Below are positions 32,721 to 49,705 of a stretch of 49,705 nucleotides of DNA, piece by piece. The notes under the pieces were generated by a model. That model had not been told where the DNA came from. It did no database searches and saw only the letters and a program-made list of their open reading frames with translations. Each line of letters starts with the position of its first letter. Position 1 is the stretch's first letter. The stretch lies in assembly GCA_051274975.1 (NCBI GenBank), contig JBNMND010000001.1, forward strand, positions 1 through 49,705, given 5' to 3'. This stretch comes from Planctomycetota bacterium (GTDB taxonomy: Bacteria; Planctomycetota; UBA1135; UBA2386). A program made the position numbers and the translations under genes.

Positions 32721-32758
32721 GCATGGATAAGTCGCTCAGGCAGCGAGCAACTGAACGC

Positions 32759-33583: not shown

Positions 33584-33645
33584 GCCGCAAATTTGTGCAC
33601 CGTGCTGGGGCACCGCGTCTTCCCTAACCACACCGAGGAATCGCC

Positions 33646-34215
33646 ATGGAACATCTAGTCTGGATCATCCCGCTCGTCATCGTCCTGTTCGGCATCATGA
33701 TGATTGTCGGCTGCTACAACGGGCTCGTTAGCCGTCGTAACGAGGCCAAGAACTCGTGGAGCCAAATCGACGTGCAATTGAAGCGTCGTTACGACCTGAT
33801 TCCGAACCTGGTCGAGACGGTCAAGGGCTACATGAAGCACGAGTCGGAGACGCTCGAAGCTGTCATCAAGGCGCGCCAGCAAGCGGTCGACTTGCAGAAC
33901 GCGGGCAACATCGGCGAGCTGATGAAGGCCGATGGCATGTTGACGCAATCGCTTGGTCGTCTGTTCGCCGTGTCCGAGAGTTACCCGGATCTCAAGGCCA
34001 ACCAGAACATGATGTCGCTTCAAGAAGAGCTGGCATCGACCGAGAACCGCATCGGCTTTTCGCGTCAGCACTACAACGATGCCGTCATGAAGATGAACAA
34101 CGGCATCGAGCAGTTCCCGGCCAACATGGTTGCCGGCATGTTCAACTTCAAGTTGGGCGAGTTCTTCGAGGTCGAAAACGACGAAGAGCGCAAGAACGTC
34201 AAGGTGTCGTTCTAA
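33646..34215 (+). CDS. lemA: LemA family protein
   Basis: 189 aa. ATG is preceded by GAGGAA. N-terminal TM helix and the typical LemA sequence (YNGLVSRRNEAKNSWSQIDVQLKRRYDLIPNLVETVKGY...SYPDLKAN). Confidence 0.9.
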   Translation: MEHLVWIIPLVIVLFGIMMIVGCYNGLVSRRNEAKNSWSQIDVQLKRRYDLIPNLVETVKGYMKHESETLEAVIKARQQAVDLQNAGNIGELMKADGMLTQSLGRLFAVSESYPDLKANQNMMSLQEELASTENRIGFSRQHYNDAVMKMNNGIEQFPANMVAGMFNFKLGEFFEVENDEERKNVKVSF

Positions 34216-34229
34216 CGACCGCACTGGAG

Positions 34230-34856
34230 ATGACGCACTCGTGCTCAGTCTTGTTGTTAGCGGGTGCCGCCGATTCAGTTGGCCAACGCATCGCGAGTGC
34301 GGTGTTGGCCGCCGGTGGCAAAGTTGCGGCCGCGGTGCCGCGCGCTTGGCAAGTGGATAAACTGCGTGAGGCGCTCGGTGCCGAAGCTGCCGACCGCTTA
34401 TTTGTCGGCGTCGTTCCCGCTGCGGATGCGGAAGCCGCAGCCGGCTTCGTCAAGGGCGCAAAGGACGTGCTTGGCGGCATCACGCACTTCGCTGGCGCTT
34501 CGCAGTTGTTGCGAGAACGCGTCGCTGGACGCGAGCCTGGTGGTGATTCCGACGAGTTGCTGGCCGCCAACCTGACTAGCAATACGGCGCTCTGCCGCGC
34601 CGTTCTGTCGGCGATGCGCCGTCGCGAATCTGGGCGCCTTGTGTTCGTGGCCGCTCCGGACAACACCGATGCGTTGTCCGCTACGTGTCGGGCAAGCCTT
34701 GCGGCGCTAGCAGAGTTCGCTGCGGCGCTTGTCGATGACCTGACGAACACCGGAATCGATGTTGAGATCGTTCCTGCGCCAAACGTCTCAGGTGCTGGAG
34801 ATCCGCATCTGGCGCGTTGGCTCGCAGCCTTGGCGCCAAGCGGTGCGGCATCCTGA
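34230..34856 (+). CDS. Rossmann-fold SDR-like protein (atypical, catalytic Tyr not evident)
   Basis: 3' part of ORF 33756..34856, whose 5' part overlaps lemA out of frame. ATG 34230 is preceded by GGAGA. The sequence VLLLAGAADSVGQRIASAVLAAGGKV is a glycine-rich NAD(P)-like motif. The usual YxxxK appears replaced (CRASLAAL). Confidence 0.55.
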   Translation: MTHSCSVLLLAGAADSVGQRIASAVLAAGGKVAAAVPRAWQVDKLREALGAEAADRLFVGVVPAADAEAAAGFVKGAKDVLGGITHFAGASQLLRERVAGREPGGDSDELLAANLTSNTALCRAVLSAMRRRESGRLVFVAAPDNTDALSATCRASLAALAEFAAALVDDLTNTGIDVEIVPAPNVSGAGDPHLARWLAALAPSGAAS

Positions 34857-34930
34857 CGGGGCCCCTGTTGCGGCGTCGCTGTCTAAGGGGGGCTGTTGTC
34901 GGCAGTAGTCGAGGGCTACAAGCAAGGAAC

Positions 34931-36019
34931 ATGTTCGGGCTCCATAGCAACACGCGGCGCGCCGTCTTAGGCCTGGTCACGTTGATCGCGGTTCCATCTC
35001 AGGTGCTTGCTCAGACCGAGCAGCCGGTTGAGAAGGCGCCCGAGAGCGTCCAGGAGCCTCTAAATCCCGCCGAGCAGAAGGCCAAGCAGTTGGCCAAGGT
35101 CACTCTGGCCGCCGAGAAGTGGCTGGCGACCGATCAGACCTCCGAAGACCTGATGGCGGAGACCGTTTCCACGGTTTTGCACGATGCAAAGGTCGGGCTT
35201 ACCTGGCTTGGCCAGCAGTTGCCGGCCATCGACAAAGCTCCCAACACGCCGCGCTCGAAGGGTCTTCGTACGCTCTGCACGCAAGCGACTCTCGAGTTCC
35301 TGCGGCGAACAGGCAAGGCGAGCATGGTGTTCGTTGGTCAATACAATGACCTGCTGGAGTTGCAGCCGTTTGCGAGTGAGTTCTTGTTCCAGCTGCTTCT
35401 CGAGACGCCGGACTGGTATCCGTTCACGTTTCGCGTGCGTTTGGTCCCGGCTCTGCGCGACATCCAACTGCGGTTGCCTGCGGTCGCACGAGTCGATGGC
35501 ATCGTCGAGCTGATCAAGAACGAGCAAGAGTCCGACGGCCTGCGCAACGCGCTTGCTGCGATGATGGCGCAGTGGGGTCGTCCTGAGCATGCCAATACCG
35601 TGATCAAGCGGCTGCGTGAAGCGACCATGGAAGGTGATGGCGAGGACCGCGTTCATGCGACCCTCGTGGTGGCGGACTACTACAACGTGTTGCGCGACTA
35701 CGAGAACGCCGCGCGTGCTCACCGAGCTGCGCAAGCCCTCGCCAAGGGTGCCAATGTCGAGCTGCGCCCGGTTGCTTGGTATGCGGCGGCCTGTGTGCAC
35801 GCATTGCACGGCAAGGTAGAACGCGGCATCGAGGCGCTGGAGCGATGCGCTCGCATGCACGCTTCACCGGACCTCGATCGTTCGCTGCGACTCGAGCGGG
35901 AGCTGTTCGAAAAAGATCCTGAACTCGCGTTGCTACGCAAGGACAAGCGCTTCGCCGGGCTGTTGAAGCTTGCCTTTGGTGAGGCCAAGAAGGGCGAGCC
36001 GCAAAAGGACGGGCGCTAG
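34931..36019 (+). CDS. Secreted helical (TPR-like C-terminus) hypothetical protein
   Basis: ORF 34817..36019. ATG 34931 is preceded by AAGGAA and gives the signal peptide MFGLHSNTRRAVLGLVTLIAVPSQVLAQ. No catalytic motif. Confidence 0.6.
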   Translation: MFGLHSNTRRAVLGLVTLIAVPSQVLAQTEQPVEKAPESVQEPLNPAEQKAKQLAKVTLAAEKWLATDQTSEDLMAETVSTVLHDAKVGLTWLGQQLPAIDKAPNTPRSKGLRTLCTQATLEFLRRTGKASMVFVGQYNDLLELQPFASEFLFQLLLETPDWYPFTFRVRLVPALRDIQLRLPAVARVDGIVELIKNEQESDGLRNALAAMMAQWGRPEHANTVIKRLREATMEGDGEDRVHATLVVADYYNVLRDYENAARAHRAAQALAKGANVELRPVAWYAAACVHALHGKVERGIEALERCARMHASPDLDRSLRLERELFEKDPELALLRKDKRFAGLLKLAFGEAKKGEPQKDGR

Positions 36020-36022
36020 TAG

Positions 36023-37816
36023 TTGGTACTGCCGATCTCGTTCTTGCTCGGGTTGATGGTGGTTGTTGCTCATCGAGAGATGGGCGGAACCTTGCCGGGC
36101 GAGAGCACGGTTGCAGGTGTTCTGTGGGCTGCGACGCTGTTGCTCGCGCCACTGCTACTCGCGGCGTTGTCACGTCGATTTGCGGTCTATTCGCTAGTTT
36201 CGACGCGATCGCCGGTCATTCCGCCGCGCGCGCTGCTGCGTTTGTCGGCGCTCGCAACGCCGCTGGCGTTGCACGGGCTGTTTGCGTTCGGTGCCTACAA
36301 CGATTGCATCGATCGACTGGCGCCGAGCAGCCACACGTTGCGCGTTCTGCTCGCGTTGGCACCACTGTACCTCGCGGAGTTGCCGCGCTCGGCAATGGCG
36401 ACGATGGCGGAAGGGTTGCTTGAGGCGCGTTACGACGCGCGCGACGGGCACCCGGTGTCGGCGTCGTTGCTACCGCGTTGGGGGGACATCTGGCCGGTGT
36501 TTCGACTGCGCCTTGGCTGGCCGGTCTTGGCGCTCTTGCCCGCGGTGATGCTCGGCGGTTGCTTGGATGTGTTGCAGCTGCATCGACCGAGCTACGTGCT
36601 CGTGTTTGTGACATCGTCCGGGATGACCATTGCGACCGTGGTGTTCCTGATCCTCGCTGCTGTCGTGTTGCCGTTTTGGTTTCGGGTCGCCTTTGGTGTC
36701 AGCAAGGCCATGCCGGAACCGATCGGCACAACGTTGCGTGCGACGGCTCAGCTACTTGGGTTCTCGCCGAAACGCGTGTTCGTCCTGCCAACCGGCATGC
36801 GGTCGATGAATGCGATGATGGTTGGTCCCTTACCCGTTGGCCGATTGCTTTGCCTGACGGATGGCTTGCTGTCGACGCTGGATAGCCGGTCGCTCACAGG
36901 CGTGTTGGCGCACGAAGTCGGCCACGCGCGCATGGGCCACCCCGGCCTGTTGATGCTATTGGCGGTCGTTGTGCCGTTGATGTTGCTGTCGCCTCTGCGT
37001 TTATTGGATGTCGAACAGATCGATGTCACGCTGCAGGCCGTTGGCATGGTGGTCATCTTGCTGAGTTTGTGGCTTTCGTTGCGCACACTGGCGCGTCGAT
37101 TTGAGCATGAAGCGGATGTGTCGTCGGTCCAAGCACTTGGCGCAGAGCCCTGTAGTCGGGCGCTATTGACGGTTTCGAGCATGACGGTGCCTCAGGCGAA
37201 GTCCTTGCGTGGGCGCCTGCTTAGTTTGCATCCCGACGAACAACAGCGGCTCACCGTGATGCGTCGCTACGAGAGCGAGCCGGCGTTTCGCGAACAGTTC
37301 GATCGACAAACACGTCGCCTTAGACGCGTGATTGCCTTGGTGCTACTCGGTGCCCTTGGCTTTGGTGGTTGGTTCTGGCAAGCAGACTGGCAGTACGAAA
37401 GGGTGCTGTCGCGGTTCTACTCCGGCGACTTGGTTGGCGCGCAGCAAGCCATGGCCGAAATCAAGGAACGGCCACCGCGTTGGCAGGATGCCCTAGAGCA
37501 CGTCGACGAAGAGTTGGCGGCGGGCTTGGAATTGGCGCCGGACGCGCGCGACTGGGCCACGATTGAAGAGCGGCTCATTCCAGCTGCGTGGGAACGTGGT
37601 GAACGCGTGTTGCTAACCGAAGGTCCGGCTGCTGCACGGCCTTGGTTCTCGCTGGCCGTTTATGCAATGCCAACGCCGACCCCGACCGAATACGCTATCC
37701 ATGACTACTGCCGCGCGGCCGCGGACGGGGACGGCGAGCTGACAAGCCGGCTAGCGCAGATCATCAAGCGGCTTGGCGTTCCCGCTGCCTTGGAACCAGT
37801 GTTCCGCGACTACTAG
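36023..37816 (+). CDS. Polytopic M48-family zinc metallopeptidase (HtpX/Ste24-like) with extended C-terminal helical domain
   Basis: 597 aa. TTG start 3 nt after the preceding stop (start uncertain). Multiple TM helices. HEVGHARMGH (HExxH) in a membrane context. Confidence 0.8.
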   Translation: MVLPISFLLGLMVVVAHREMGGTLPGESTVAGVLWAATLLLAPLLLAALSRRFAVYSLVSTRSPVIPPRALLRLSALATPLALHGLFAFGAYNDCIDRLAPSSHTLRVLLALAPLYLAELPRSAMATMAEGLLEARYDARDGHPVSASLLPRWGDIWPVFRLRLGWPVLALLPAVMLGGCLDVLQLHRPSYVLVFVTSSGMTIATVVFLILAAVVLPFWFRVAFGVSKAMPEPIGTTLRATAQLLGFSPKRVFVLPTGMRSMNAMMVGPLPVGRLLCLTDGLLSTLDSRSLTGVLAHEVGHARMGHPGLLMLLAVVVPLMLLSPLRLLDVEQIDVTLQAVGMVVILLSLWLSLRTLARRFEHEADVSSVQALGAEPCSRALLTVSSMTVPQAKSLRGRLLSLHPDEQQRLTVMRRYESEPAFREQFDRQTRRLRRVIALVLLGALGFGGWFWQADWQYERVLSRFYSGDLVGAQQAMAEIKERPPRWQDALEHVDEELAAGLELAPDARDWATIEERLIPAAWERGERVLLTEGPAAARPWFSLAVYAMPTPTPTEYAIHDYCRAAADGDGELTSRLAQIIKRLGVPAALEPVFRDY

Positions 37817-37940: not shown

Positions 37941-40229
37941 CTAGTAGCGGTTGACCTCAACGGCCCACGTCATTTCCTTCTTCCATACTTCGTTGCCGTG
38001 GCGGTCGAACTCGCGAACGCGCGTGTTCTCGGCGACGATCGTATTGCCATTGGGCAGGCGGTCGGCGTCGCTTGGCGAGCTCAGGCCCGACAGTTCGAAG
38101 ACGATCTTGCCGTCTCGGTCGATCTCCATGACCGCGCCCTTGTTGCGCAGCGTGACCAGCGTGTTGCCGTTCGGCAGGCGGTCGGCGTCGTGCGCGTTCG
38201 GCAGGCCCTTGCCTTCCCAGACGATTTCGCCGGCCGGGCTGACTTCGAGCACGCGATCCTTGAGCACGTCCGCGATCAACGTGTTGCCGTTGGCCAAGCG
38301 GTCGCAATCGAACGGTCGGATGTCTTGCGAGTAGCTCCAGACGATCTTGCCTTCCGGATTCACTTCGATGACGCGACTTGCGAAGGTGTCGGCGATCAAC
38401 GTGTTGCCGTTCGGCAGGCGGTCCGCATCATAGGGGTTCTTGAGGTCTTCGAACTGCCAGATGGTCTCGCCCTTGCGGTTGACCTCTTGCACACGACTGA
38501 CCGAGAACTCAGTGATCAACAGGTTGCCGCTGTCGAGGCACTCGGCATCCCACGCGCCGAAGATCTCTTCGAGCACGAACACGATGCGACCTTGGTCGTC
38601 GACTTCGACAATGCGGTTGTCGCTGTAGTCCGCAATCAGCGTAAAGCCCCACATGGCGCCGCCGCCGACACCGAGTTCGACGCGAGTGACCGCACTCCAT
38701 GGCAGAGCCGTTGCGCCGAGTAGCGGCACGGTCACTGCGACTTTGTCGCCGGTGCTTTCAGCAACGAAGCCAAGCAGGCGTTCGCCGGTAACCAGGTCCA
38801 TGCGCACGTAGCTGATGGCGTCTGGTTCGGTCATGCGCGGACGCAAGAACAGCATGCCGCCGACTTCGGCGATTGGGATCTGGTGGACCTTGCCAGTAGT
38901 CGACTCGAGGATCACCTTGCCAGCATCGATGCTCACGATCTTGCCGTTGATGAACTTGCCAGTGCGCAAGCGCAAACGATCATGATCGACGGATGCGCCA
39001 ACCAAGCGGGTCAGCGTCGGATCGAAGGCCATGCCCTGGATGTCGGCGCGAGCAAAGGTCAGCTCACCAAAGATCGGTGATTGCAGACGCACGGACTCGG
39101 GGTCGATCGAGAGCACTTTGCCCGCGACGCGCGTTCCTTGGTTGAGGAACACCATCGTGTCCTCAGTCTTCTTGGCTACGTGCTTGGGAAACTCGAACGT
39201 CGAGCAATCGCTGATTGAGAGCTCGGCAATGGGGACGCCGGCGAACGCACCTTCGACTGCGAACGTATCGCCGAACGCTTGTCCGAGCTTGCCGAGCACG
39301 TGTGTCTTGCCATCGATTGTCAGTTGCGCTTCGACCTTGCTGATCTCCGCTGGGATGACAACCGCTGCGCCCTTGGCGATGACTGCGTCGCTGTGCTTGC
39401 CGAGGTCGGTGAGCAACTGCTTGGCACCGTCGTCGGCACGCGTTCGCAAGCCACGCACGATGGACATCGTTTCGGTGCGATTGAGTTCGACGCCTTCGAG
39501 CGGCCCTTCCTTGATGCCGCCGAGCATCATACCGCGGCAGTGCGCGAGTGCCTTCGCCGACTGCATGCGACCCAGTGCACTCAGTGCAATCGAACGGTGT
39601 AGGCCGGACTTGAACTTGACCATCATCGCGATGGCGTCGGCTTCGTTGTCGCCGCCGTGCTTGCCGATAGCGCGGATCGCGCCGCCGGCAATCGAAGTGT
39701 CGGTGTGGCCGAGCGCACTGCGTAGGGAACGCAACAGTCGATCATCACCGTCGAGATAGAGCGCACTGCGAACGAGACCTTGCAGCAGTTTGCGTTCGCG
39801 GTCTTCTTGTTCGGTGCCCTTGGCATCGAGTTCTTCGAGAATGCGACCGCAACGAATGTGTTGCTCGAGCACCTCGTAGTCATCCCGACGTTGCTGGATG
39901 ACCGTGCGCGCGCGTCCGCCGATTTCGACCAACGAACGTTCGGCGTTTTCACGAACGCGCCAGCTCGGATCGCACAACTCATCGAGCAGTCGGTCGATCT
40001 TCAATCGATACTCGCGGTGATCACCGTGGATGCGAGCGACGATCGCAGTAAAGGACTGGGCCTTCGCCGCGACGAGCTTGCCGACCTGCTCTACTTGGGT
40101 GATCAGCGACAGCGACTGGAAGCCGTTGCTCTCGGTGACCAGTTGATCGTCAGTCCAGTCCTGGGCCGGCAAAGCCGTGATCAGGGCAGTGACAAACGGG
40201 AGAAGACGCGGAAGGGACAGCGGGGTCAT
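37941..40229 (-). CDS. Secreted HEAT-repeat + beta-rich linker + C-terminal beta-propeller protein
   Basis: ORF 37941..40250 begins at TTG. ATG 40229 gives MTPLSLPRLLPFVTALITALPAQ. HEAT-like helices (DPSWRVRENAERSLVEIG, LGHTDTSIAGGAIRAIG). The C-terminus has five or more 40-aa blades carrying DADRLPNGNTL(I/V). Confidence 0.75.
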   Translation of the reverse strand: MTPLSLPRLLPFVTALITALPAQDWTDDQLVTESNGFQSLSLITQVEQVGKLVAAKAQSFTAIVARIHGDHREYRLKIDRLLDELCDPSWRVRENAERSLVEIGGRARTVIQQRRDDYEVLEQHIRCGRILEELDAKGTEQEDRERKLLQGLVRSALYLDGDDRLLRSLRSALGHTDTSIAGGAIRAIGKHGGDNEADAIAMMVKFKSGLHRSIALSALGRMQSAKALAHCRGMMLGGIKEGPLEGVELNRTETMSIVRGLRTRADDGAKQLLTDLGKHSDAVIAKGAAVVIPAEISKVEAQLTIDGKTHVLGKLGQAFGDTFAVEGAFAGVPIAELSISDCSTFEFPKHVAKKTEDTMVFLNQGTRVAGKVLSIDPESVRLQSPIFGELTFARADIQGMAFDPTLTRLVGASVDHDRLRLRTGKFINGKIVSIDAGKVILESTTGKVHQIPIAEVGGMLFLRPRMTEPDAISYVRMDLVTGERLLGFVAESTGDKVAVTVPLLGATALPWSAVTRVELGVGGGAMWGFTLIADYSDNRIVEVDDQGRIVFVLEEIFGAWDAECLDSGNLLITEFSVSRVQEVNRKGETIWQFEDLKNPYDADRLPNGNTLIADTFASRVIEVNPEGKIVWSYSQDIRPFDCDRLANGNTLIADVLKDRVLEVSPAGEIVWEGKGLPNAHDADRLPNGNTLVTLRNKGAVMEIDRDGKIVFELSGLSSPSDADRLPNGNTIVAENTRVREFDRHGNEVWKKEMTWAVEVNRY
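38041..38550. repeat. Exact 120-nt periodicity of beta-propeller blade-coding units
   Basis: GT(A/G)TTGCC(A/G)TT(G/C)GGCAGGCGGTC(G/C)GC-type strings begin at 38041, 38161, 38281 and 38401, and more diverged at 38521. Each encodes the DADRLPNGNT blade motif on the minus strand. Confidence 0.85.
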
Positions 40230-40477
40230 TCGTGTTCGGAGTTTAGGCAACGCAGGGACTCTCGTGTGGTTCGTTCCGATGTAGACACTGACGTTGACGG
40301 CACTAGTTGGGTCAGATTCCCCAGCAACGGAGTTATGACACTGGGAATGGGTTTGGGGGGGCCTCGCCGTCGATCCTTCAAGGACGTAGAGTCCGAGAGA
40401 ACCCTCCTCGCGCTGCTACCGTTGGTTGTGTCCGATTGGCCCACGCTTGGGCCTACACCAAACTAGGAACGAAGTTA

Positions 40478-43279
40478 GTGTCGCTGCCCCCGTCATCCGT
40501 GGCGCGCATGCTTGCATGCGCCTCGCTCTGCGCTGCCGTAATTTCTGCTCAACAGGTACGGGTCAACGCTCCCCTCGGAGCCTTGGCCGCGCGTGGGGCC
40601 GAACAATCCGTCGACGACCCTGGTAAACGGGTCGAGATGTTCGAGAACCCCAATCTTGACAGGTACTTAGAACGCGCGCAGATGTTCTTGGATCGCGACG
40701 ACTACACGTCTGCTGTCAAGGTCCTCCAGGACGTCATCGAGGGTCGAACCGTAGAAGTCTTTGCGACTCGCGACGAGGGAGACGACCCCAACGCGGAGGC
40801 TATCGAGCCCAACAAATCGCCAAAGACCGCTCCCAAACCAACCAAGACGCTCGCCCCACAGACGGGTCGTCGCAGCACTTCAGCTGGCACCAAGAAGGGC
40901 GATGAGCGCGTCGCTAGTAGTGAACTCGACGCCCGAAACGCAGTTTTTAGTCGAGACGGGCGCATCTACCGACCCGTTCGCCGCCTCTGTCACGAGTTGC
41001 TTTCGCGAATGCCGGATGTCGGCATTCAGATCTATCGCACAGCGCATGAGTTTGCGGCTGACGAGATGCTGACGGAAGCGATGGCCAGTGGTTCATCTAC
41101 CGCTCTCGAGCAAGTTGCGAATCGCTACTTCGTCACGCTCCCGGCTGGCCGCGCGATGATGTTGCTTGCTGATCGCCTGATGCACGAGGGGCGCTACCGA
41201 GCTTCGGTTCAGGTTCTGCGCGATCTGCTTGACGTCTACCCGGAGCAGAATCGCAAGGCGCTCGGAATCCGCGACACCTGGTGCCACTTCAAGATTGCGT
41301 TGTGCCTGCGACTGGCCGGCGAGAACGACGCAGCCCAGGAAGTCGTCACCGTGCTCGCTGACGAATACGCGGAGGAGTCGCTGCGCATTCGCGGTCAACT
41401 CGAGACGATTCACGATCTGCCCAACAGCAAGCTGTTCGCGCGTGACACGGTGGCGATTGAAGCCATTCCGGATGGCAACGCTGGCCTTCAGTGGCTGCAG
41501 CCGGAGACGACCGACTTGGTGCCGTTGTGGCAGTACCGCTTCGAGAACGAAACGCCCTACAAGGATCCGAAGCCGAGCAAACGTGGGCGCAACGGCATGT
41601 TCTTCGATGGTCGCAACCAATCGAACTCGATGCCGTTCGCAAATCGCTACGGACCCGGCACGCGAGTGTTGTTTAGCAGTCAACGTGACGGCGACCAGAC
41701 CGTGCCGCGCGCTGTCTTCCTTGAGCACTACCGCCTGCGCCTCGCAGACACCGCTTCCGGATTATTGATAGGTCAGGGTGATGGTGTCGACGTGCCGCCG
41801 CTGGCGCGCGAAGGCCATCCACGTGTGCGTATCGCTGCGTGTGATTACGCGCTGCTGCGCCCGGTCGAAGACGAAGAGCGCCGCTTCATCATCATCGGTC
41901 ACGAAAGCAACACGACCCAAAGCAAGGAGTCGCTCAAGGCGAGCCAACTCGTTGCCTACGACAAGGTCACCGGCAAGCGCTCGTGGTCGTCGGAGAACTG
42001 GCAAGACGGGTCGAATGGCTTGCGCCAGGTGACGTTCCTCGCGGCGCCGACGGTGTTCGGCGAGCGGTTGATGTTGCCGTCGATGCGCAAGAACGCGTAC
42101 ACGCTTGAGTGTCTCGATCGCCGCACTGGTGAGCCGCTTTGGCACACACCGTTGCACGCTGGCGGGTCACCGTTCTTCAAGGCGCCTGGTTGCCCGGTCG
42201 TTGTGCAAGGCGGGATCGCATTCGTTGCGACCAACGCTGGCTGCGTCGCGGCCGTCGACGCGTTCGCTGGCGACTTGCGTTGGATTCGTCGCTACGAGCG
42301 GCACGACTCGGCCCACAAGACCTTCAGGAAGAAGAAGCCGCGGGCGAGCAGCCGTCGCTTCAACAGTTACAGCAACCAATTCACGCAGGCGGTGCTCGAT
42401 AGCTTCTTGCCGAGTGACATGATCATGCACGACGGTCTGCTGATCGTCGCGCCGTGTGATAGTGAGGTTCTACTCGCGATCGAAGCTGCCACCGGCAAAT
42501 CCGTCTGGATGCTCGACGGCCGCACGCGATATGCGCCCTACGGACGAGTAACGGAGGTTGTCGGCCACGACGACAAGCAGTTGTTCGTGATGTCGGACTC
42601 GCACCTCGTCAGCATCGAACTTGAAGGCGGCTTGGTGCGCTGGATGCAGAAGCTGCCGAGCTGGGCCGGACCCAAATACTCAGGTCGCGGTCGCGGACTC
42701 ATCGTGAACGGCAAGGTGATCGTGCCAAACATGCGCGAACTGTTGGTGTTCGACGCAAACAACAAGGCGCCAATGCGACGTTTGCACTTGCCGGCATTCG
42801 ACGAGAGTCGTGAGCCGTTGAGCGGTAGTTGCCACCTATTCGTCAAGGGCCCTTGGCTGGCTGTTGGCTACCAAGGCGGCGTTGAGGTGTATAGCACCGC
42901 CGTGGCACTTAGTCAGCTCGCCGGCAACACCGGGGATCCGATGCGGAAGGCGTCGTACCTGACGAAGAGTGGCGACCCGGCGCAAGCCGAGAAGGTCTTG
43001 GCCGCAACAGTTGCGAACACCTTGGACGTAACCGTTCGTCTCCGCGCCGCGAAGCAATTGCTCGCACTGGTCTCGGGTCGCGCTGAAGGCTTGGCGCGCG
43101 CTGGCAAGCTCCCCGGAGCATTGAAGGCGATGGACGCCGTTCGCGACTTACTCGCGGATCGCACCGTGCGTCTCAACTGGCACTTGGCACGCATTGAGAT
43201 CTGCAAAGATGCAGGCGACATGCGCGCCCACGAATCGGAACAACAAAGTCTCTACGACTACATGGAGGGTCGAGGATGA
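40478..43279 (+). CDS. Secreted TPR-like helical + PQQ/BamB-like beta-propeller + C-terminal helical protein
   Basis: ORF 40307..43279. The likely start is GTG 40478 or ATG 40508, before the signal peptide MLACASLCAAVISAQQ. Repeated blade motifs are VAYDKVTGKRSWS, LECLDRRTGEPLWHT, VAAVDAFAGDLRWIR, LLAIEAATGKSVWML and LVSIELEGGLVRWMQ. Confidence 0.75.
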   Translation: MSLPPSSVARMLACASLCAAVISAQQVRVNAPLGALAARGAEQSVDDPGKRVEMFENPNLDRYLERAQMFLDRDDYTSAVKVLQDVIEGRTVEVFATRDEGDDPNAEAIEPNKSPKTAPKPTKTLAPQTGRRSTSAGTKKGDERVASSELDARNAVFSRDGRIYRPVRRLCHELLSRMPDVGIQIYRTAHEFAADEMLTEAMASGSSTALEQVANRYFVTLPAGRAMMLLADRLMHEGRYRASVQVLRDLLDVYPEQNRKALGIRDTWCHFKIALCLRLAGENDAAQEVVTVLADEYAEESLRIRGQLETIHDLPNSKLFARDTVAIEAIPDGNAGLQWLQPETTDLVPLWQYRFENETPYKDPKPSKRGRNGMFFDGRNQSNSMPFANRYGPGTRVLFSSQRDGDQTVPRAVFLEHYRLRLADTASGLLIGQGDGVDVPPLAREGHPRVRIAACDYALLRPVEDEERRFIIIGHESNTTQSKESLKASQLVAYDKVTGKRSWSSENWQDGSNGLRQVTFLAAPTVFGERLMLPSMRKNAYTLECLDRRTGEPLWHTPLHAGGSPFFKAPGCPVVVQGGIAFVATNAGCVAAVDAFAGDLRWIRRYERHDSAHKTFRKKKPRASSRRFNSYSNQFTQAVLDSFLPSDMIMHDGLLIVAPCDSEVLLAIEAATGKSVWMLDGRTRYAPYGRVTEVVGHDDKQLFVMSDSHLVSIELEGGLVRWMQKLPSWAGPKYSGRGRGLIVNGKVIVPNMRELLVFDANNKAPMRRLHLPAFDESREPLSGSCHLFVKGPWLAVGYQGGVEVYSTAVALSQLAGNTGDPMRKASYLTKSGDPAQAEKVLAATVANTLDVTVRLRAAKQLLALVSGRAEGLARAGKLPGALKAMDAVRDLLADRTVRLNWHLARIEICKDAGDMRAHESEQQSLYDYMEGRG

Positions 43280-44310
43280 GAATCGCTTGTCTAATCATGG
43301 CCGTCGGCATCGCCGCCGCATCAAGCCTCTCGGCGCAAAACGCCGCATACCCTCCCGGTGTAACCCCTGCGATCCACAAGTCGGTGCAACGCGGACTGAC
43401 CTGGCTTTCGCACAACATGGCCAACGACGGCAGTTGGCGTAATTCAGGTGGCTATGGCAGCTACCCGGCCGCGATGACCGGTCTGGCTGGCATGGCGTTC
43501 ATCGCCTCTGGTTCGACCCCAACGCGCGGTCGCTACTGGCAAGAGGTGCGCAAGTCCGTTGGCTTCTTGATGAAGAACGCCGATGCCAACACCGGCGTCA
43601 TCTCGATCCCGGCCGAAGAAGGTCGGAGCATGTATGGCCATGGCTTCGCGACGCTCTACCTGGCTTCCGTGTATGGCATGGAAGAGGACTTGCGCAAGCA
43701 GGCCAAGCTCAAGCGCGTGCTCGACAAGGCAGTCGGCTTGATCGCTTCGGCGCAGTCTTCGGCTGGTGGCTGGATCTACACGCCAGATTCCAACAGCGAT
43801 GAAGGCAGTGTCACGGTCACGCAGATCCAAGCGCTGCGCGCGTGCCGCATGGCGGGCATCGTGGTCGACAAGAAGGTCATCGATAAGTCGGTCGACTACA
43901 TCAAGCGCTGCCAAAACGGCGACGGCAGCATTCGCTACAGCCTCAACTCCGGCGGCGATGGTCGCCCGGCAATCACCGCTGCTGGCGTGGCCGTTCTCTA
44001 CAACGCTGGTGTCTACGATGACCAGCCGTTCGTCGACAAGGCCGTTCAGTACTGCAAGAAGCGCATCAAGACGTCGGTCAACAACACCGGCCACCACTAC
44101 TACGCGCAGCTCTACTGGAGCCAGGCGCTCTACCAACGTGGCGGCAAGGATTGGGACGACTACTACAAGAGCATGGGTGCTTGGCTGATGAAGCAGCAGA
44201 GTAAGGATGGAAGTTGGCAAGGTGACGGCGTCGGCACCGTCTATGGCACTGCGATCGCGTTGACGATCCTGCAACTCCCCTACTCCTTCGCTCCGATCTA
44301 CCAGCGCTAA
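43276..44310 (+). CDS. Secreted prenyltransferase/squalene-cyclase-repeat (alpha/alpha-toroid) protein, paralogue 1
   Basis: 344 aa. The ATG overlaps the upstream stop (ATGA). Signal peptide MRIACLIMAVGIAAASSLSAQ. QW-like motifs are NDGSWRN, AGGWIYTP, GDGSIRY and KDGSWQGD. Confidence 0.75.
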   Translation: MRIACLIMAVGIAAASSLSAQNAAYPPGVTPAIHKSVQRGLTWLSHNMANDGSWRNSGGYGSYPAAMTGLAGMAFIASGSTPTRGRYWQEVRKSVGFLMKNADANTGVISIPAEEGRSMYGHGFATLYLASVYGMEEDLRKQAKLKRVLDKAVGLIASAQSSAGGWIYTPDSNSDEGSVTVTQIQALRACRMAGIVVDKKVIDKSVDYIKRCQNGDGSIRYSLNSGGDGRPAITAAGVAVLYNAGVYDDQPFVDKAVQYCKKRIKTSVNNTGHHYYAQLYWSQALYQRGGKDWDDYYKSMGAWLMKQQSKDGSWQGDGVGTVYGTAIALTILQLPYSFAPIYQR

Positions 44311-44313
44311 TCA

Positions 44314-45369
44314 GTGTTCACGATGTTGCGATGCTTCCAAGCTAGTCTGGCCGCTGTGCTGTTGCCGCTTTGTGCGGGACAGGTGTCGGCTCAGGTGGCT
44401 TCCTTGCCACCAGGCGTGACGCCGGAGATCCAGAAGGCCATCCTGCGCGGGCAAGCATGGCTGGAAAGCAATCAAGCAGCCGACGGCAGTTGGCGCAACG
44501 GCGGTAGCTACGGCACCTACCCAGCGGCGATGACGGCGATGGGTGGCATGGCCATTCTGGCTGGTGGCTCGACGCCGACGCGCGGCAAGCACTGGCAACA
44601 GGTTCGAAAGGCGACTGAGTGGCTGTTGAAGCGTATCGACGCCCAGACTGGCTTCATCACTCTTCGCCAACAAGAGCAGCGTGGCATGTATGGCCATGGC
44701 TTGGCGACGTTGTTCTTGGCTTCCGTCTACGGGATGGAGGAAGACCAGCGCACCCAGAAGCGATTGAAGCGAGTGCTTGATGGTGCGGTCGCGTTGATCA
44801 GTAACTCACAGTCCGCGGCTGGCGGTTGGTACTACCAACCATCAAGCACTGATGACGAAGGCAGTGTCACCGTCACTCAGATTCAAGCGCTGCGCGCATG
44901 TCGCATGGCCGGCATCGTGGTCGACAAGAAGACGATCAATCGCGCCGTCAACTACATCAAGCGCTGTCAAAACCCTGATGGCGGCATCTGCTACAAGCTG
45001 AGCATGAAGGGGTCGCAGAGCAAGCCTGCGATCACTGCTGCGGGAGTCGCGGTTCTTTACAACGCCGGCGTCTACGACGACCAACCGTTCGTCGATAACG
45101 CGGTGAAGTTCTGCAAGCGCCGTCTGAAGGTGTCCGTCGACAACACGGGTCACCACTACTACACGATCCTGTATTGGTCGCAGGTGCTCTACCAGCGCGG
45201 CGGCAAGGATTGGGACGACTACTACAACCGCGCTGGCGCGTGGTTGTTGAAGCAACAAGCCAAGGACGGCAGTTGGAGCGGTGATGGTATCGGTTCCGTC
45301 TATGGAACCGCCGTCGCGCTTACCATCCTGCAAATGCCACACTCTCTCGTGCCGATCTACCAGCGGTAG
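44314..45369 (+). CDS. Secreted prenyltransferase/squalene-cyclase-repeat (alpha/alpha-toroid) protein, paralogue 2
   Basis: 351 aa. GTG 44314 (or ATG 44323) lies 3 nt after the paralogue-1 stop. Long identical blocks with paralogue 1 include DEGSVTVTQIQALRACRMAGIVVDKK and PAITAAGVAVLYNAGVYDDQPFVD. Confidence 0.75.
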   Translation: MFTMLRCFQASLAAVLLPLCAGQVSAQVASLPPGVTPEIQKAILRGQAWLESNQAADGSWRNGGSYGTYPAAMTAMGGMAILAGGSTPTRGKHWQQVRKATEWLLKRIDAQTGFITLRQQEQRGMYGHGLATLFLASVYGMEEDQRTQKRLKRVLDGAVALISNSQSAAGGWYYQPSSTDDEGSVTVTQIQALRACRMAGIVVDKKTINRAVNYIKRCQNPDGGICYKLSMKGSQSKPAITAAGVAVLYNAGVYDDQPFVDNAVKFCKRRLKVSVDNTGHHYYTILYWSQVLYQRGGKDWDDYYNRAGAWLLKQQAKDGSWSGDGIGSVYGTAVALTILQMPHSLVPIYQR

Positions 45370-45411
45370 CTACAACGAGACTGAGCGAACGAACACGATG
45401 TTGGGAAAACT

Positions 45412-47712
45412 ATGATGCTTGGATTGGCCTTCCTCAATCCGCTGCTGCTGTGGGCGCTGCCGCTAGCCGCGGTGCCGATCATCATCCACATTCTGAACCG
45501 GCGACGGTTCCAGAAGGTGCCATGGGCTGCCATGACCTTCTTGCTCAAGGCGATGAAGCGCAACCGCAAGCGCATGCGCATGGAGCAGTGGTTGGTGTTG
45601 TTGCTGCGCGTGTTGGCGGTGTTGCTTTTGATCTCGCTGGTCAGTCGCCCGCAACTCGGTGGCAGTAGCCTGCTGGGATCTCGCACGCACCACGTTGTCA
45701 TTCTCGATGACAGCGCGTCGATGACGCAGCGAACCGGCAGCACGGCACTGTTCGAGAAGGCGCAGGATCGCATCAAGATGCTCGCCGACGACCTCGGCCT
45801 GCGTCGCCAAGGCGACATCTTCTCGCTGGTCACTACGAGCGCTGCGGATGTGCCCCAGATCTGGTCGCAGCGCATCGGTGGCTCCTTTAGTCGCGACGCA
45901 GGCGCCCGGCTCAAGGAACTGCAGGTCAGCGACCGTTCGCCTGATCTTGGCAAGGCGTTGGAGATGACGGTTACTCGCGCGCACGAAGTCGAAGACGCGT
46001 CGCGCACCGAATACTACCTCGTCGGCGACCGCCGTTCGTGGGACTGGGCGACGCCTGATGACAAACCACGGCCGGAGTTGCTCGCGGGCTTGAGCTCGAT
46101 GGCATCCGACAAGGAGCACGTCACAGTGCTGACAGTCGGCGGCCAACATGCCAACCTCGCGATCGTCGACGTCAAGTTGGTCGATCGCCTGGCGATCGCT
46201 GCGGTGCCGGTCACGCTCGGTATCGACGTCAAGAACTTCGGTCTCGACCCAACAGCGCCGACCACGGTTTCGATCGAGATCGATGGTCAGAGTCGCGTCA
46301 CGCAAGACGTGCCGCAACTCGCGCCGGGCGAACGCTACACGGTCCAGATGGACCACACGTTCCATGAAGCCGGTCCGCACCACCTCGATGCGTTGCTCGA
46401 GCCCGGTGAGTCGTTCCCGTTTGATGATCGCCGCACGCTTGCTTTGCAGGTGCGCGACAAGAGCCGTGTGTTGCTCGTTGACGGCCAGCCTGACGAAGAC
46501 GACGGCGAAGTGTTTTTCCTGCGAGCGACGCTCGATGTGCCAGATTCTGGCATCGAGGCGCAGGTTGTTACTGAGAGTGGTTTCGACGAAACCAACCTCG
46601 CTGCATTCGACATGATCTGGCTCTGCAACGTGCAGTCGCCAACTCCGGAAGCTGCGGAGAGGCTCGAAGCGTTCGTTGCGTCTGGCGGTGGTCTTGCGAT
46701 CACCTGTGGTTCGTTGATCGACGCGCCGCGCTACAACGACCTGTTCTGGAAGGGCGGCGAAGGCCTGTTGCCGTTGCCGATCGGTGAGATCAACGGCGAC
46801 CCGGATCGTCCCGAGCACGCGCACCTCGCGAGCAAGGATCACCCGATGTGCACGGGCGTCGCGGAGTTGTTTGAGCTGGTGCTCGCCAACTGGATCCAGG
46901 TCAAGCGTTGGCTCGAGCTGGAAGAACCGGCCAACCACGAGGCATCGATTGTTGCGCGCATCCGCGGTGCCGATGGCCCGCCGATGTTGGTGACTCGCAC
47001 CTACAAGGGAACGGGCGGCGAAGTTGCGCTGTTCGCGATCACTGCCGACCGCTTCTGGAGCAACCTACCGAGCACAGACCTGTTCTTGGTCGTGACGCAC
47101 CAGCTGCATCACTTCGCCGCGCGCCGTGACGACCAAAGCCGCAGCAACCTGCTTACGGATGGCGTGCTGACGTTGGCCGTGGATCCGGGTTTGTATCGCT
47201 CAGACGTGACGATGCGTTCGCTCGCCGGTGATGATGAGCGCACGGTGACCGTCGCAGCGCCGAAGCCCTGGTCTGATCCGGAAGACAAGTCGCCAGGCGC
47301 TACCAAGCCCGGTGCAAAGCCGCCGGAAAATCCGACTGAAACTCCGGCAGGCAACCCCGATGGGCAGACGCCCGAGACGACCAACCCAATGTTGGCACTC
47401 GAAGTTGCGATGGCGGAGCTCACCGAGCGTGGTGCCTACGAGATCCAACTCGAGCGCCACGATGGTGTCCCGGACAAGCGCATGATCGCGCGTAACGCAC
47501 CGCCCCACGAAGGCCAACTCGTGGCCTTCGATGAATCGTCGTTCAAGAAGATCTACCCAAGCAACGTGCACGATCTCGTTACGTTCGTTCGCGATGACGG
47601 TGGCGTTGGCACTGCTGCCGGTGAAGGTGAGGCGTGGCCGCTACTGGCTGCTTTGTTGTTAGTCGGCTTGTTGGCCGAGTCGCTGCTCGCCTGGAGGTTC
47701 GGCCGCCGCTAA
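45412..47712 (+). CDS. BatA_N (N-terminal double-TM) + von Willebrand factor A domain membrane protein with C-terminal TM helix
   Basis: 766 aa. FLNPLLLWALPLAAVPIIIHILNRRR is the aerotolerance-regulator N-terminal signature. MIDAS-like HVVILDDSASMT. C-terminal anchor WPLLAALLLVGLLAESLLAWRFGRR. Confidence 0.8.
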   Translation: MMLGLAFLNPLLLWALPLAAVPIIIHILNRRRFQKVPWAAMTFLLKAMKRNRKRMRMEQWLVLLLRVLAVLLLISLVSRPQLGGSSLLGSRTHHVVILDDSASMTQRTGSTALFEKAQDRIKMLADDLGLRRQGDIFSLVTTSAADVPQIWSQRIGGSFSRDAGARLKELQVSDRSPDLGKALEMTVTRAHEVEDASRTEYYLVGDRRSWDWATPDDKPRPELLAGLSSMASDKEHVTVLTVGGQHANLAIVDVKLVDRLAIAAVPVTLGIDVKNFGLDPTAPTTVSIEIDGQSRVTQDVPQLAPGERYTVQMDHTFHEAGPHHLDALLEPGESFPFDDRRTLALQVRDKSRVLLVDGQPDEDDGEVFFLRATLDVPDSGIEAQVVTESGFDETNLAAFDMIWLCNVQSPTPEAAERLEAFVASGGGLAITCGSLIDAPRYNDLFWKGGEGLLPLPIGEINGDPDRPEHAHLASKDHPMCTGVAELFELVLANWIQVKRWLELEEPANHEASIVARIRGADGPPMLVTRTYKGTGGEVALFAITADRFWSNLPSTDLFLVVTHQLHHFAARRDDQSRSNLLTDGVLTLAVDPGLYRSDVTMRSLAGDDERTVTVAAPKPWSDPEDKSPGATKPGAKPPENPTETPAGNPDGQTPETTNPMLALEVAMAELTERGAYEIQLERHDGVPDKRMIARNAPPHEGQLVAFDESSFKKIYPSNVHDLVTFVRDDGGVGTAAGEGEAWPLLAALLLVGLLAESLLAWRFGRR

Positions 47713-47727
47713 GGCGGGCATCACAAG

Positions 47728-49705
47728 ATGGATGATTTTCTGAGATGGCTGGCGGAGTGGCGTGGGATCGAAATCGAACCCGGCTCCGAGCTGCAATTTG
47801 AGTTTGCGAACTTCCCGACCGGTGGGTTGGGAATGCTCGTGTTGATGGGCATCGCACTCAGCGTTGTCTTCATTGGGTTCTGCTATCGCCGAGACGGCAA
47901 GAACCTCAGTGGCTTGCAACGCTTCATCCTCGGTTCGCTGCGAGCACTCGCCGTGCTGGCGGTGATCACGTTGCTACTCGAACCGAACTTGGTGACGGTC
48001 AAGCGCGAGACGCGGCCCGGCCACACGATCTTGCTGGTCGACACTTCGCAGTCGATGACGCACGTCGATGCATGGCGTCGCGAAGAGGTGCAACTCACCG
48101 CGACTGGTTGGAAAGAGATTGGCGCGACGGACCCGACCGTGGAAACGCGCTTGGATCTGGTCAAGGCGCTGCTCGCCAAGGACAAGCAAAGCATCGTGCA
48201 GAAGCTTGCCGCCAAGAACCGCGTGCAGCTGTACGGGTTTGATGGCAGTGTCGAAGACCTGCCGGTCATCGCGCAACCACCGAAGCTCGGCCCCGATGGC
48301 GAACCCTTGCCAGCGGATCCGAACGAGCCGCCGCCCGTGCCGGTGCTCGACCTCGAGAAACTCATCGCTGACGGTCGTTCATCCAACCTCGGTGGCGCCT
48401 TGCGCACGGCGCTCGACAAGAGCCGGCCAGCCGAGATTGCCGCAGTGGTATTCGTGACCGATGGTCGCCGAACCGCTGGTCCGCAGGGCGCCGAGATTGC
48501 GCGACTGCTCGAGCAACGCAAGATCCCGCACACCTTCGTGCTCGGCGTTGGCGACCCATCCGAAACGCAGACCGTGCAGCTGACGCGCATGGACGCGCCT
48601 TCGAAGGTCTTCCAACGCGACCCCTACGAGATGAAGGCGACGGTGACGTCGCAGGGCTACGACGGCATCACGGTGACCGCGCGTCTGGTGCGCACCGATG
48701 ACAAGGGTGCTGAGATTGTCGCCGCAACGCAGCAGGTTCCGATCGGCGCGACGCAAGAGGCAACGATCCACTGGAAGGAGCTGACCAGCGACACTTCCGG
48801 CCGCTTCTTGTATCGCACCGAGATCGTGCCGCCGGATGGCGAGCCCATGATTGCCGAACGGCACACCAAGACCGAAGCGGTTGAAGTGCTCGATCGTCGC
48901 TTGCGCATGCTGTTGCTCTCCGGCGCTTCGAGCCACGAGTTCCAGATCCTGCGCAACCTGTTGATTCGCGACAAGACGATCGACGTCTCGTGTTGGTTGC
49001 AGAGTGCCGATGAGAACTTCCCGCAGGAAGGTAACGAAGACGTTCTGATCGATCGCCTGCCGGAAGAACGTATCGAATTCGATCCCTACGACGTCGTCGT
49101 GATGATCGACCCCGATCAAGAACGACTGACGAAGCGTTTTTGCGAGAACCTGGCCAAGCACGTCATGGAAGGCGGCTGTGGTTTCTGGTGGGTCGCCGGT
49201 GAGAAGTACACACTCGACTCACTGCGTCCGACCGCGAACACGCGAGCGATCGCTGACATCCTGCCGATCGTTCCCAACATCGAAACCGCCGAGCGAGAGA
49301 TGATGGGCTTCGGCAAGGCCTTCAAGAACCCGTGGCGCTACAAGCTGACCACCGACGGGCAAGAAGGCTTTGGAGCCAAGGTCATGAAGGTTCATGACGA
49401 CAAGGACACCAGCAAGCTGCTCTGGGAGAGCATGCCGGGCTTCCACTTCTGGTTCCCGGTGACGCGCCTCAAGCCAATTGCGGTCGCGCTTGCCGAACAC
49501 CCGAGCCCGGACTTCCGACGCGGCGGCAAGAACATGCCGATCATCGCGATGCAAAGCATTGGCGCTGGTCGCGTGTTGTTCGTCGGCACCGACGAGACCT
49601 ACCGCTGGCGCTCGATTCACCAAGACGCCTACGACCGCTTCTGGATCAACGGCATTCGTTACTTGTTCGAGGGCCGCTTGCAGGCAGGTAACAGCCGCCT
49701 GCGCA
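47728..49705 (+). CDS. Two-TM + vWA + class-I glutamine-amidotransferase-like domain membrane protein (3' end beyond window)
   Basis: Not in the ORF track because it has no stop. I translated from ATG 47728 to the window end without meeting a stop: MDDFLRWLAEWRGIEIEPGS...GRVLFVGTDETYRWRS...GNSRLR. TM helices GMLVLMGIALSVVFIGFCY and LRALAVLAVITLLLEP. MIDAS-like ILLVDTSQSMT. Confidence 0.75.
   Translation, partial: MDDFLRWLAEWRGIEIEPGSELQFEFANFPTGGLGMLVLMGIALSVVFIGFCYRRDGKNLSGLQRFILGSLRALAVLAVITLLLEPNLVTVKRETRPGHTILLVDTSQSMTHVDAWRREEVQLTATGWKEIGATDPTVETRLDLVKALLAKDKQSIVQKLAAKNRVQLYGFDGSVEDLPVIAQPPKLGPDGEPLPADPNEPPPVPVLDLEKLIADGRSSNLGGALRTALDKSRPAEIAAVVFVTDGRRTAGPQGAEIARLLEQRKIPHTFVLGVGDPSETQTVQLTRMDAPSKVFQRDPYEMKATVTSQGYDGITVTARLVRTDDKGAEIVAATQQVPIGATQEATIHWKELTSDTSGRFLYRTEIVPPDGEPMIAERHTKTEAVEVLDRRLRMLLLSGASSHEFQILRNLLIRDKTIDVSCWLQSADENFPQEGNEDVLIDRLPEERIEFDPYDVVVMIDPDQERLTKRFCENLAKHVMEGGCGFWWVAGEKYTLDSLRPTANTRAIADILPIVPNIETAEREMMGFGKAFKNPWRYKLTTDGQEGFGAKVMKVHDDKDTSKLLWESMPGFHFWFPVTRLKPIAVALAEHPSPDFRRGGKNMPIIAMQSIGAGRVLFVGTDETYRWRSIHQDAYDRFWINGIRYLFEGRLQAGNSRLR

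Follow-up and report, generated by a model that had tools for sequence, protein, structure and literature searches.

Why should membrane proteins of the Bat type, built around a vWA (von Willebrand factor A) domain, be encoded apart from MoxR and DUF58, the presumed chaperone pair of the Bat systems? Bat-type vWA envelope proteins are widespread, yet what they do biochemically has stayed undefined ever since their first description. Bat function is undefined still, with a reducing role in the periplasm proposed (PMC3557215), and MoxR and DUF58 are contiguous in described Bat clusters (PMC3557215; abstract of PMC5700661). The question is raised here by one end of a 49,705-nt stretch of DNA, hereafter the window (Planctomycetota bacterium, JBNMND010000001.1, positions 1-49,705), in which five plus-strand genes, g1 to g5, run from position 40478 to the window end and encode a propeller protein, two toroid proteins and two vWA membrane proteins. 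The answer that we prefer, tentatively and with a confidence that falls somewhat short of even, is that these genes are the 5' half of a conserved envelope cluster of an uncultured Planctomycetota clade, a MoxR-independent relative of the Bat systems. The features concerned are the following (aa, amino acids; TM, transmembrane; TPR, tetratricopeptide repeat).

37941-40229, minus strand: u2, secreted HEAT-repeat and ASST-like beta-propeller protein, 762 aa from the Met, signal peptide MTPLSLPRLLPFVTALITALPAQD; weak Pfam matches to HEAT_2, Arylsulfotran_2 and Arylsulfotrans
40230-40477, no strand: divergent u2-g1 intergenic region, read directly and presumed to contain the promoters
40478-43279, plus strand: g1, secreted TPR and BamB/PQQ_2-like propeller protein, 933 aa, or 923 aa from an alternative ATG at 40508 (Pfam, signal peptide)
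43276-44310, plus strand: g2, secreted single-domain (alpha/alpha)6 toroid (Pfam, AlphaFold2, Foldseek)
44314-45369, plus strand: g3, second toroid and optional member, 67% identical to g2 (Pfam)
45412-47712, plus strand: g4, BatA_N double-TM region, vWA, CARDB and GATase1-like domains, C-terminal TM helix (Pfam, NCBIfam, TM prediction)
47728-49705, plus strand, cut by the window end: g5, TM hairpin, vWA, beta-sandwich, GATase1-like/DUF7408 domain, beta-sandwich, C-terminal TM helix (Pfam of orthologues, AlphaFold2)

Gene content and conservation of the cluster

On re-reading, all five open reading frames (ORFs) are present on the plus strand with the junctions of -4, 3, 42 and 15 nt that the first-pass annotation had given. 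The stop codon of g1 and the start codon of g2 share the ATGA at 43276-43279, with a GGAGGG just upstream. The gap between g2 and g3 is 3 nt if g3 begins at GTG 44314 and 12 nt if it begins at ATG 44323, the choice of the JGI (Joint Genome Institute) gene caller, and gaps of 42 nt (g3-g4) and 15 nt (g4-g5) follow. A signal peptide or an N-terminal TM hairpin is visible in each of the five products, in agreement with the envelope targeting first proposed for the whole set. By exact-protein comparison, the contigs that hold the window's own proteins stop inside or just past g5.

The distribution of these genes was examined by scanning one genome per GTDB species with toroid motifs, the best 80 of at least 580 stretches giving 79 loci (numbered with the prefix L), all of which come from Planctomycetota metagenome-assembled genomes (MAGs). 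In tblastn comparisons the order and strand u2(-), g1, g2(g3), g4, g5, g6, g7 are kept in about 75 of the 79, a recurrence that is far beyond chance. Identity within these syntenic loci drops to 25-35% for g1 and to 31-40% for g4, so the linkage of propeller, toroid and vWA genes extends far beyond close relatives; its confinement to these had been named at first pass as a refuting finding. The divergent gene u2 adjoins g1 in nearly all of them and is probably a co-regulated member of the cluster. At the other end, g8 and a short ORF behind g7, g7b, are present in every locus long enough to show them (41-45 loci), and g9 is found in all four loci that were extended further (L085-L088). The genes thus form a conserved and tightly spaced unit of at least ten, of which g1-g5 are the 5' half. 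The unit of five genes originally described does not hold, its boundary being an artefact of the window end: the series continues with g6, g7, g8 and g9, with the divergent u2 upstream. The members that lie past the window end are:

g6 (L003 16947-19193, 4-nt overlap with g5): about 750 aa, three TM helices
g7 with g7b, a reading frame treated below (L085 12331-14211; L086 12264-14111; L088 12413-14407; L006 approximately 18240-20189): third gene past the window end
g8: secreted protein of about 345 aa with weak TPR matches
g9: protein of about 400 aa with an NPCBM domain in all four extended loci

It could be held that these genes are neighbours by descent only and constitute no functional system, since any functional link between them is read from genes alone. 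This we regard as extremely improbable, given that order, strand and overlapping junctions are kept where g1 is only 25-35% identical, and that every product examined is exported or membrane-anchored by a signal peptide or TM helix (for g8 and g9, one or two orthologues were checked). The ATGA overlaps suggest apparent translational coupling at g1/g2 and at g5/g6, and these shared boundaries recur in many loci. No match to the sigma-70 consensus was found in the u2-g1 intergenic region (40230-40477), and promoter and terminator scans were uninformative, neither doing better than on shuffled sequence; the terminator-like matches inside the array were no commoner than in shuffled sequence.

Several members lack any useful annotation. 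NCBIfam gave nothing at or near cut-off for g6, g7, g8, g9 or u2. For g6, Pfam gave no informative match in 38 orthologues (PF13779, DUF4175, in none of the 38 at an E-value of 0.05), and its profile had no sequence match in the PDB. Searched against 1.84 billion cluster representatives at 50% identity, the g6 profile retrieves 8507 relatives at E<=1e-3 and 1210 at E<=1e-30. One of ten remote relatives scanned, P0500, matches DUF4175 with 38.8 bits against a cut-off of 27.3, and one NCBI record labels a g6 orthologue DUF4175. On these matches g6 is predicted to belong to a large, essentially unannotated family with a remote link to DUF4175.

The vWA membrane proteins and the MoxR and DUF58 partners

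The assignment of g4 to the Bat type is well founded, with matches above cut-off to BatA_N (PF07584, E 2.7e-18) and to TIGR02226 (E 9e-21). The architecture given for it at first pass, in which BatA_N leads into a vWA domain and a TM helix closes the C terminus, stands as far as it goes, but it left out a CARDB domain (E 1.4e-7) and a GATase1-like domain; the VWA_2 match (E 1e-4) is below the Pfam gathering score. Among 36 g4 orthologues BatA is matched in all 36, CARDB in 35, VWA_2 in 26, ThuA in 12, Glyco_hydro_42M in seven and GATase1_like in five. The VWA match of the window's g5 is likewise weak and below its gathering score, and NCBIfam gave nothing at or near cut-off for this protein; its 48 orthologues match DUF7408 (38), VWA_2 (18), VWA (16), BatD PF13584 (four) and ThuA (two). 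The ThuA, GATase1_like and DUF7408 matches of g4 and g5 are all below Pfam gathering scores.

Both proteins carry the DxSxS sequence of a metal-ion-dependent adhesion site (MIDAS), DDSAS in g4 (45706-45720) and DTSQS in g5 (48040-48054), and in g5 the MIDAS residues D105, S107, S109 and D245 are invariant in the 48 orthologues. Profile-profile comparison (hhalign) aligns g4 and g5 over 664 columns, from the second TM helix through the C-terminal TM helix, with a probability of 98.3% and an E-value of 1e-14, which shows them to be paralogues. While BatA_N has no Pfam match in g5, the TM hairpin of g5 aligns to that of g4. The GATase1-like domain had been assigned to g5 alone, which cannot be upheld for paralogues that both contain it; this region has a near-invariant Cys in g4 and Asp in g5. 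For g5 itself the description of two TM helices, vWA and GATase1-like domain was right for the part inside the window but missed the C-terminal part beyond it, the full-length protein being 831 aa and including a C-terminal TM helix. The large domains of g4 and g5 are predicted to be periplasmic, because the loops between the TM helices and the tails past the C-terminal TM helix are positively charged in both sequences. Each protein would thus sit in the inner membrane with TM segments at both ends, a hairpin at the N terminus and a helix at the C terminus, and have its bulk in the periplasm.

The structure of g5 was modelled on an orthologue, P0241, that is 90% identical to the protein of L001, from the same species. 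The AlphaFold2 model (predicted local distance difference test score, pLDDT, 83) has a TM hairpin, the vWA alpha/beta domain (residues 86-290), beta-sandwiches, a second alpha/beta domain, a further beta-sandwich and the C-terminal TM helix. The top Foldseek match, the human oligosaccharyltransferase subunit 6s7t_G, is used cautiously, as whole-chain matches have very low TM-scores of 0.1-0.2; the multidomain glycosidases that dominate the whole-chain results were set aside (TM-score about 0.1). The g4 profile gave nothing meaningful against PDB sequences. The central alpha/beta domain of both proteins resembles those of ThuA, DUF4159, the GldG/IFT52 'GIFT' proteins and OST48, but g4 and g5 have no neighbouring ABC transporter gene that could supply a partner like GldA/GldF.

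The aerotolerance (Bat) operon of Bacteroides and its spirochaete and Francisella relatives comprise MoxR, DUF58, the vWA proteins BatA and BatB, the TPR proteins BatC/BatE, and BatD. In them, as here, a BatA_N double-TM region precedes a vWA domain with a MIDAS, two vWA membrane paralogues stand in tandem, and proteins with TPR matches, here weak ones, accompany them in the envelope. The present cluster differs in having no adjacent MoxR or DUF58, in the much greater length of its vWA proteins, to which CARDB, GATase1-like and C-terminal TM regions have been added, and in its toroid, propeller, g6, putative selenocysteine-containing coiled-coil and NPCBM proteins. The counterparts of the Bat TPR proteins and BatD are faint, consisting of the weak TPR matches in g1 and g8 and the weak BatD matches in four of 48 g5 orthologues. 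Another vWA system of Planctomycetes-Verrucomicrobia-Chlamydiae bacteria, the 'force transducers' encoded downstream of TolQ/R-like genes (PMC12204202), was considered and rejected, as its proteins each have one TM helix, of the SHLS type, and are accompanied by motor genes, both absent here. A search of the literature on Bat/MoxR in Planctomycetes, on DUF4175/DUF58 and DUF7408/DUF4159 and on toroid-vWA clusters, and of curated families, found no description of this gene set, in line with its presentation at first pass as uncharacterised.

MoxR or DUF58 genes directly after the vWA genes had been named beforehand as the finding that would make this an ordinary Bat operon. There are none within 10 kb downstream in L085-L088 by precomputed Pfam annotation, nor any in the window among 33 ORFs of at least 150 aa searched with Pfam. 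A six-frame scan of 1.49 Mb (the window and 86 loci) for the MoxR sensor motif, the DEINR Walker B and the GxPGxGKT Walker A, with patterns taken from general knowledge and no positive control, also returned none; it was relied on in preference to a P-loop scan of crudely called genes, which missed a known ABC ATPase. A single DUF58 pattern match, in L076, falls inside a DapF-like gene. The suggestion that the propeller and toroids occupy the position of MoxR and DUF58 is, however, not demonstrable in any sense.

An ordinary Bat/MoxR system could still account for the pair, were a MoxR ATPase and DUF58 protein made at another locus to act in trans on the vWA domains of g4 and g5. The bona fide BatA_N of g4 and the complete MIDAS of both paralogues would suit such a system, as would the TPR and BatD matches, weak as they are, in recalling BatC/E and BatD. 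We nevertheless consider it rather unlikely: neither gene lies within 10 kb on either side in about 75 genomes, in contrast to the contiguity noted above for described Bat clusters, and toroid, GATase1-like, g6, g7 and NPCBM proteins are not among the Bat components mentioned in PMC3557215 or PMC5700661.

The toroid and propeller proteins

The description of g2 and g3 as secreted proteins with prenyltransferase/squalene-cyclase repeats is borne out by Pfam matches to SQHop_cyclase_C and Prenyltrans (E 1e-7 to 1e-10) and by a toroid model of g2. Both matches are just above their gathering scores, SQHop_cyclase_C with 34-39 bits against 26.1, and QW-type repeats account for all the similarity of the toroid profile to PDB sequences. 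In its AlphaFold2 model (pLDDT 86) g2 folds into an alpha/alpha barrel with about 12 helices, for which Foldseek gives its best E-values, 6e-9 to 4e-7, to the monodomain class II terpene cyclases 8paj and 8pak, both myxobacterial, and MstE (6sbb-6sbg) at TM-scores of 0.63-0.66 and identities of 14-18%. Further matches are AprG, prenyltransferase beta subunits, the thioester-containing domains (TEDs) of alpha-2-macroglobulin (A2M) and complement C3, and a series of glycan-active (alpha/alpha)6 enzymes, namely the polysaccharide hydrolase MmpH, which has the highest TM-score (0.68), the N-acylglucosamine 2-epimerase family, mannose isomerase and unsaturated glucuronyl hydrolase.

A DWDD string is present in both toroids (residues 292-295 of g2 and 299-302 of g3), so that the earlier statement that they lack DxDD was literally wrong. 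Functionally it was right: orthologues have DWDE, DWTK, DWTD or DWRN at this place and a conserved DxDD general-acid motif was not found among them; only D292 and W293 are conserved, and the DWDD string is therefore not the catalytic DxDD. NCBIfam cyclase models score 28-51 bits on the toroids against cut-offs of 320-850. The invariant residues of the family are H122, D175, E176, C190, C212, C260 and H274; the Asp, Cys and His residues among them (D175, C190, C212, C260, H122 and H274) would be the candidates for the Asp/Cys/His Zn triad of protein prenyltransferase beta subunits.

The cyclase-like matches raise the possibility that the toroids are exported enzymes of the class II terpene-cyclase/prenyltransferase type acting on an isoprenoid lipid of the envelope, with the other proteins as accessories. 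The SQHop_cyclase and Prenyltrans matches and the closest folds (8paj, 8pak and MstE) speak for this, and, like the monodomain class II cyclases and the prenyltransferase beta-subunit/squalene-hopene cyclase superfamily, the cluster protein consists of one (alpha/alpha)6 toroid, some 320-345 residues long, that contains QW-like repeats. It departs from them in being exported, in having no conserved DxDD and a different set of invariant residues, and in its low identity (14-18%, at TM-scores of 0.6-0.66). The sequence likeness to these enzymes is limited to QW-type motifs, the Sec-type signal peptides would place the toroids outside the cytoplasm and away from prenyl-diphosphate substrates, and no isoprenoid genes are found nearby. 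Such a role is accordingly very unlikely.

Somewhat more can be said for a periplasmic glycan or cell-wall machine, in which the toroid would be a carbohydrate-active enzyme or binder, the NPCBM protein would bind glycan and the GATase1-like domains would act as scaffolds of the GldG/OST48 type. The MmpH, epimerase, isomerase and glucuronyl hydrolase matches of the toroid, the NPCBM domain on g9 in all four loci, the oligosaccharyltransferase subunit as top structural match of g5 and the Glyco_hydro_42M-type matches in seven of 36 g4 orthologues all point in this direction. The best toroid E-values nevertheless belong to terpene cyclases, no hidden Markov model of a glycoside-hydrolase family was matched, the cluster has no glycosyltransferase, flippase or polysaccharide export gene, and the whole-chain g5 matches have TM-scores of 0.1-0.2. 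We judge this explanation improbable, to about the same degree as a Bat system served by a distant MoxR.

The resemblance to the TEDs of complement C3 and A2M lies in the alpha/alpha fold, in the A2M and C3b fold matches and in precomputed PF07678 matches on some toroid orthologues. The cluster toroid is, in contrast to a TED, a stand-alone protein, and a GCGEQ-like thioester motif is present in neither the g2 nor the g3 sequence. The MIDAS of integrin I-domains binds the TED toroid of C3d. Docking of the cluster toroid on the MIDAS sites of g4 and g5 may be envisaged, with this structural analogy as its sole basis.

Among the cluster proteins compared, toroid g2 is the most conserved, with a median identity of 70% across 57 loci against 49% for g1, 56% for g4 and 60% for g5. 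A pair of toroid paralogues is, on the other hand, not the core feature that it seemed to be from the window, as g3 accompanies g2 in only 21 of 76 cluster loci; the other 55 have just one toroid, and every time it is of the g2 type. Even L006, where g2 and its window counterpart are 96% identical, has no second toroid, yet the very distant loci L072 and L078 do, which suggests an old duplication followed by repeated loss. A lone toroid paralogue occurs in four further loci (L034, L042, L045 and L080) from which the other cluster genes are absent; in three of the four the same MAG carries the cluster on another contig, and the ORF listings of the four show no recurring gene arrangement.

The propeller protein g1 also conforms to its initial description as a TPR-like and PQQ/BamB-like protein, with PQQ_2 matched at E 4.7e-18 over residues 542-760 and TPR_6/TPR_14 weakly over residues 226-297. 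Quinoprotein dehydrogenase models in NCBIfam reach 31-36 bits against cut-offs of 480-650, with no full-length match, and the significant match is to PQQ_2, which points to a scaffold of the BamB type and not to a quinoprotein dehydrogenase.

A probable selenoprotein, its neighbourhood and the putative assembly

The gene g7 encodes a secreted coiled-coil protein that gene callers split into a gene of about 530-580 aa and the ORF g7b of 63-69 aa. The two share a frame in all 46 loci compared. In 28 of these, one or two in-frame stops lie between them, all TGA and never TAA or TAG, and no internal stops are found in the other cluster genes. The remaining 18 loci have Cys in 13 cases (for example QCNCNG, QCNGQCNG or QCSQCNG) and neither Cys nor selenocysteine (Sec, U) in five, although the alignment of TGA to Cys is approximate owing to insertions and deletions. 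The motifs read at the TGA site, HUTSC, CGHUTG, GGCUTG and GUTGTU, place U/C pairs 0-3 residues apart in a Gly-rich linker, and the peptide downstream of the TGA is conserved. In the Cys-type L087 a single g7 of 661 aa is called, in the TGA-type L088 two pieces of 583 and 69 aa. The splitting of g7 in TGA-bearing genomes is a practical point for annotation.

A hairpin lies directly 3' of the TGA. In 18 of the 28 TGA loci its stem has 6 bp and its loop reads GGUC(A/C), the GGU beginning at nt 22 and thereby 18 nt past the UGA. The model of the bacterial selenocysteine insertion sequence (bSECIS) is a stem of 4-16 bp with a loop of 3-9 nt that has a G in its first two positions and lies 16-37 nt from the UGA (PMC13188914), a definition that fits in 18 of 28. 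Pairing occurs in 89% of the cells of the hairpin alignment, whereas sliding the partners lowers this to 34-58%, and there are compensatory exchanges of U-A to C-G. Of 27 TGA loci, 21 keep the apical stem intact, with 5-6 of 6 pairs, but only one of 18 non-TGA loci does, even though conserved Pro-Pro codons fix its 3' arm. Folding z-scores at the site are -2.2 and -3.6 in TGA loci and +1.2 in a Cys locus. The minimum free energy over 60 nt was tried as a discriminator and dropped, for in DNA so rich in GC it could not tell TGA loci from the others, and the register-specific stem count and z-scores were used in its place. An Rfam scan at the TGA site returned no family. The complete Sec machinery is present in some cultured Planctomycetes (PMC4807772). 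Taken together, the codon, motif and hairpin patterns indicate that g7 is very probably a selenoprotein. With the UxxC/CxxU selenoproteins it shares a UGA opposite Cys, as far as the approximate alignment goes, the U/C pairs and the downstream hairpin with its GGUCA loop. It differs from them in carrying the motif in a secreted coiled-coil protein and not in a thioredoxin-like fold.

The genes flanking the cluster have been surveyed on both sides. Past g9 comes, in three of the four extended loci (L086 16384-20428; L087 16513-20668; L088 16783-20890), a closely spaced tandem of three same-strand Trypsin_2/PDZ (HtrA-like) genes, and genes for a Peripla_BP_2 protein and a FecCD ABC transporter are downstream in all four; both sets may be part of the same unit. 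Upstream, at window positions 32483-37816, stand genes for DapF, LemA, a protein like the short-chain dehydrogenases/reductases, a protein with a TPR-type end and no Pfam match, and a 7-TM M48 peptidase. Synteny of this DapF-to-M48 block with the cluster holds in many loci, and the two together look like an envelope-maintenance neighbourhood. A PIG-L protein and an MA-type peptidase are also among the upstream neighbours. DUF4381 proteins accompany MoxR and DUF58 in Bat operons; a Peptidase_MA_2 protein at 31352-32395 has a weak DUF4381 match (E 0.009) that is probably due to chance. Farther upstream in the window are genes for a sigma-70 factor and ParAB. Two large ORFs (657 and 456 aa; 17353-20703, minus strand), neither of them matched by Pfam, adjoin an HNH endonuclease gene (20752-21594). 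Genes of alternative complex III (293-6396: ActD, NrfD-like, 4Fe-4S and cytochrome c7-type subunits) and, apart from them, a multihaem cytochrome gene (12140-13405) form a respiratory context unrelated to the cluster.

For the MoxR-independent Bat relative that we favour, a working model can be outlined. The g4/g5 pair would form a platform in the inner membrane whose two intact MIDAS sites would hold soluble partners by metal-dependent contacts, with no dedicated AAA+ remodeller. The toroid, as the most conserved part, would serve as its core, either binding a ligand or acting as the catalyst. The assembly would owe to the Sec/Cys pair of g7 a periplasmic thiol/selenol redox chemistry, serving perhaps in the reduction of oxidised envelope substrates or in the handling of peroxide, metal or metalloid. 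The cluster is thus possibly redox-active, and this idea for g7 agrees with the reductive periplasmic role proposed for the Bat proteins (PMC3557215). Several observations weigh against such a model. MoxR and DUF58 could be encoded elsewhere in these genomes. The fold match of the toroid is generic, its predicted structure being matched by terpene cyclases and prenyltransferases, by glycan-active (alpha/alpha)6 enzymes and by TEDs alike. Spacing is the sole basis on which we infer a single transcript from g1 onward. In the variants of g7 with two TGA codons (L006, the nearest of the relatives that extend as far as g7, is one), the first apical loop has no consensus G at its first two positions, a second hairpin being found at a fitting distance from the second UGA. 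Finally, the redox motif of g7, whether Cys or Sec, is absent in five of 46 loci (L049, L053, L054, L057 and L077), and g7 redox chemistry is therefore not universal or essential to the assembly.

All carriers of the cluster are uncultured MAGs, and the cluster is known here from its genes alone. It separates the membrane vWA module from the presumed MoxR/DUF58 chaperone pair and also ties that module to an exported toroid, to a propeller scaffold and, as a third partner, to a probable selenoprotein. In its boldest form, which is possible but on balance unlikely, the cluster would encode a Planctomycetota-specific periplasmic machine that operates without any MoxR or DUF58, in which the vWA-GATase1-like proteins, as a heteromeric pair, hold the toroid, as enzyme or receptor, and the propeller scaffold, while a new family of coiled-coil selenoproteins supplies the redox function. 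If true, such a machine would be the first mechanistic handle on the Bat-type vWA proteins of the bacterial envelope.

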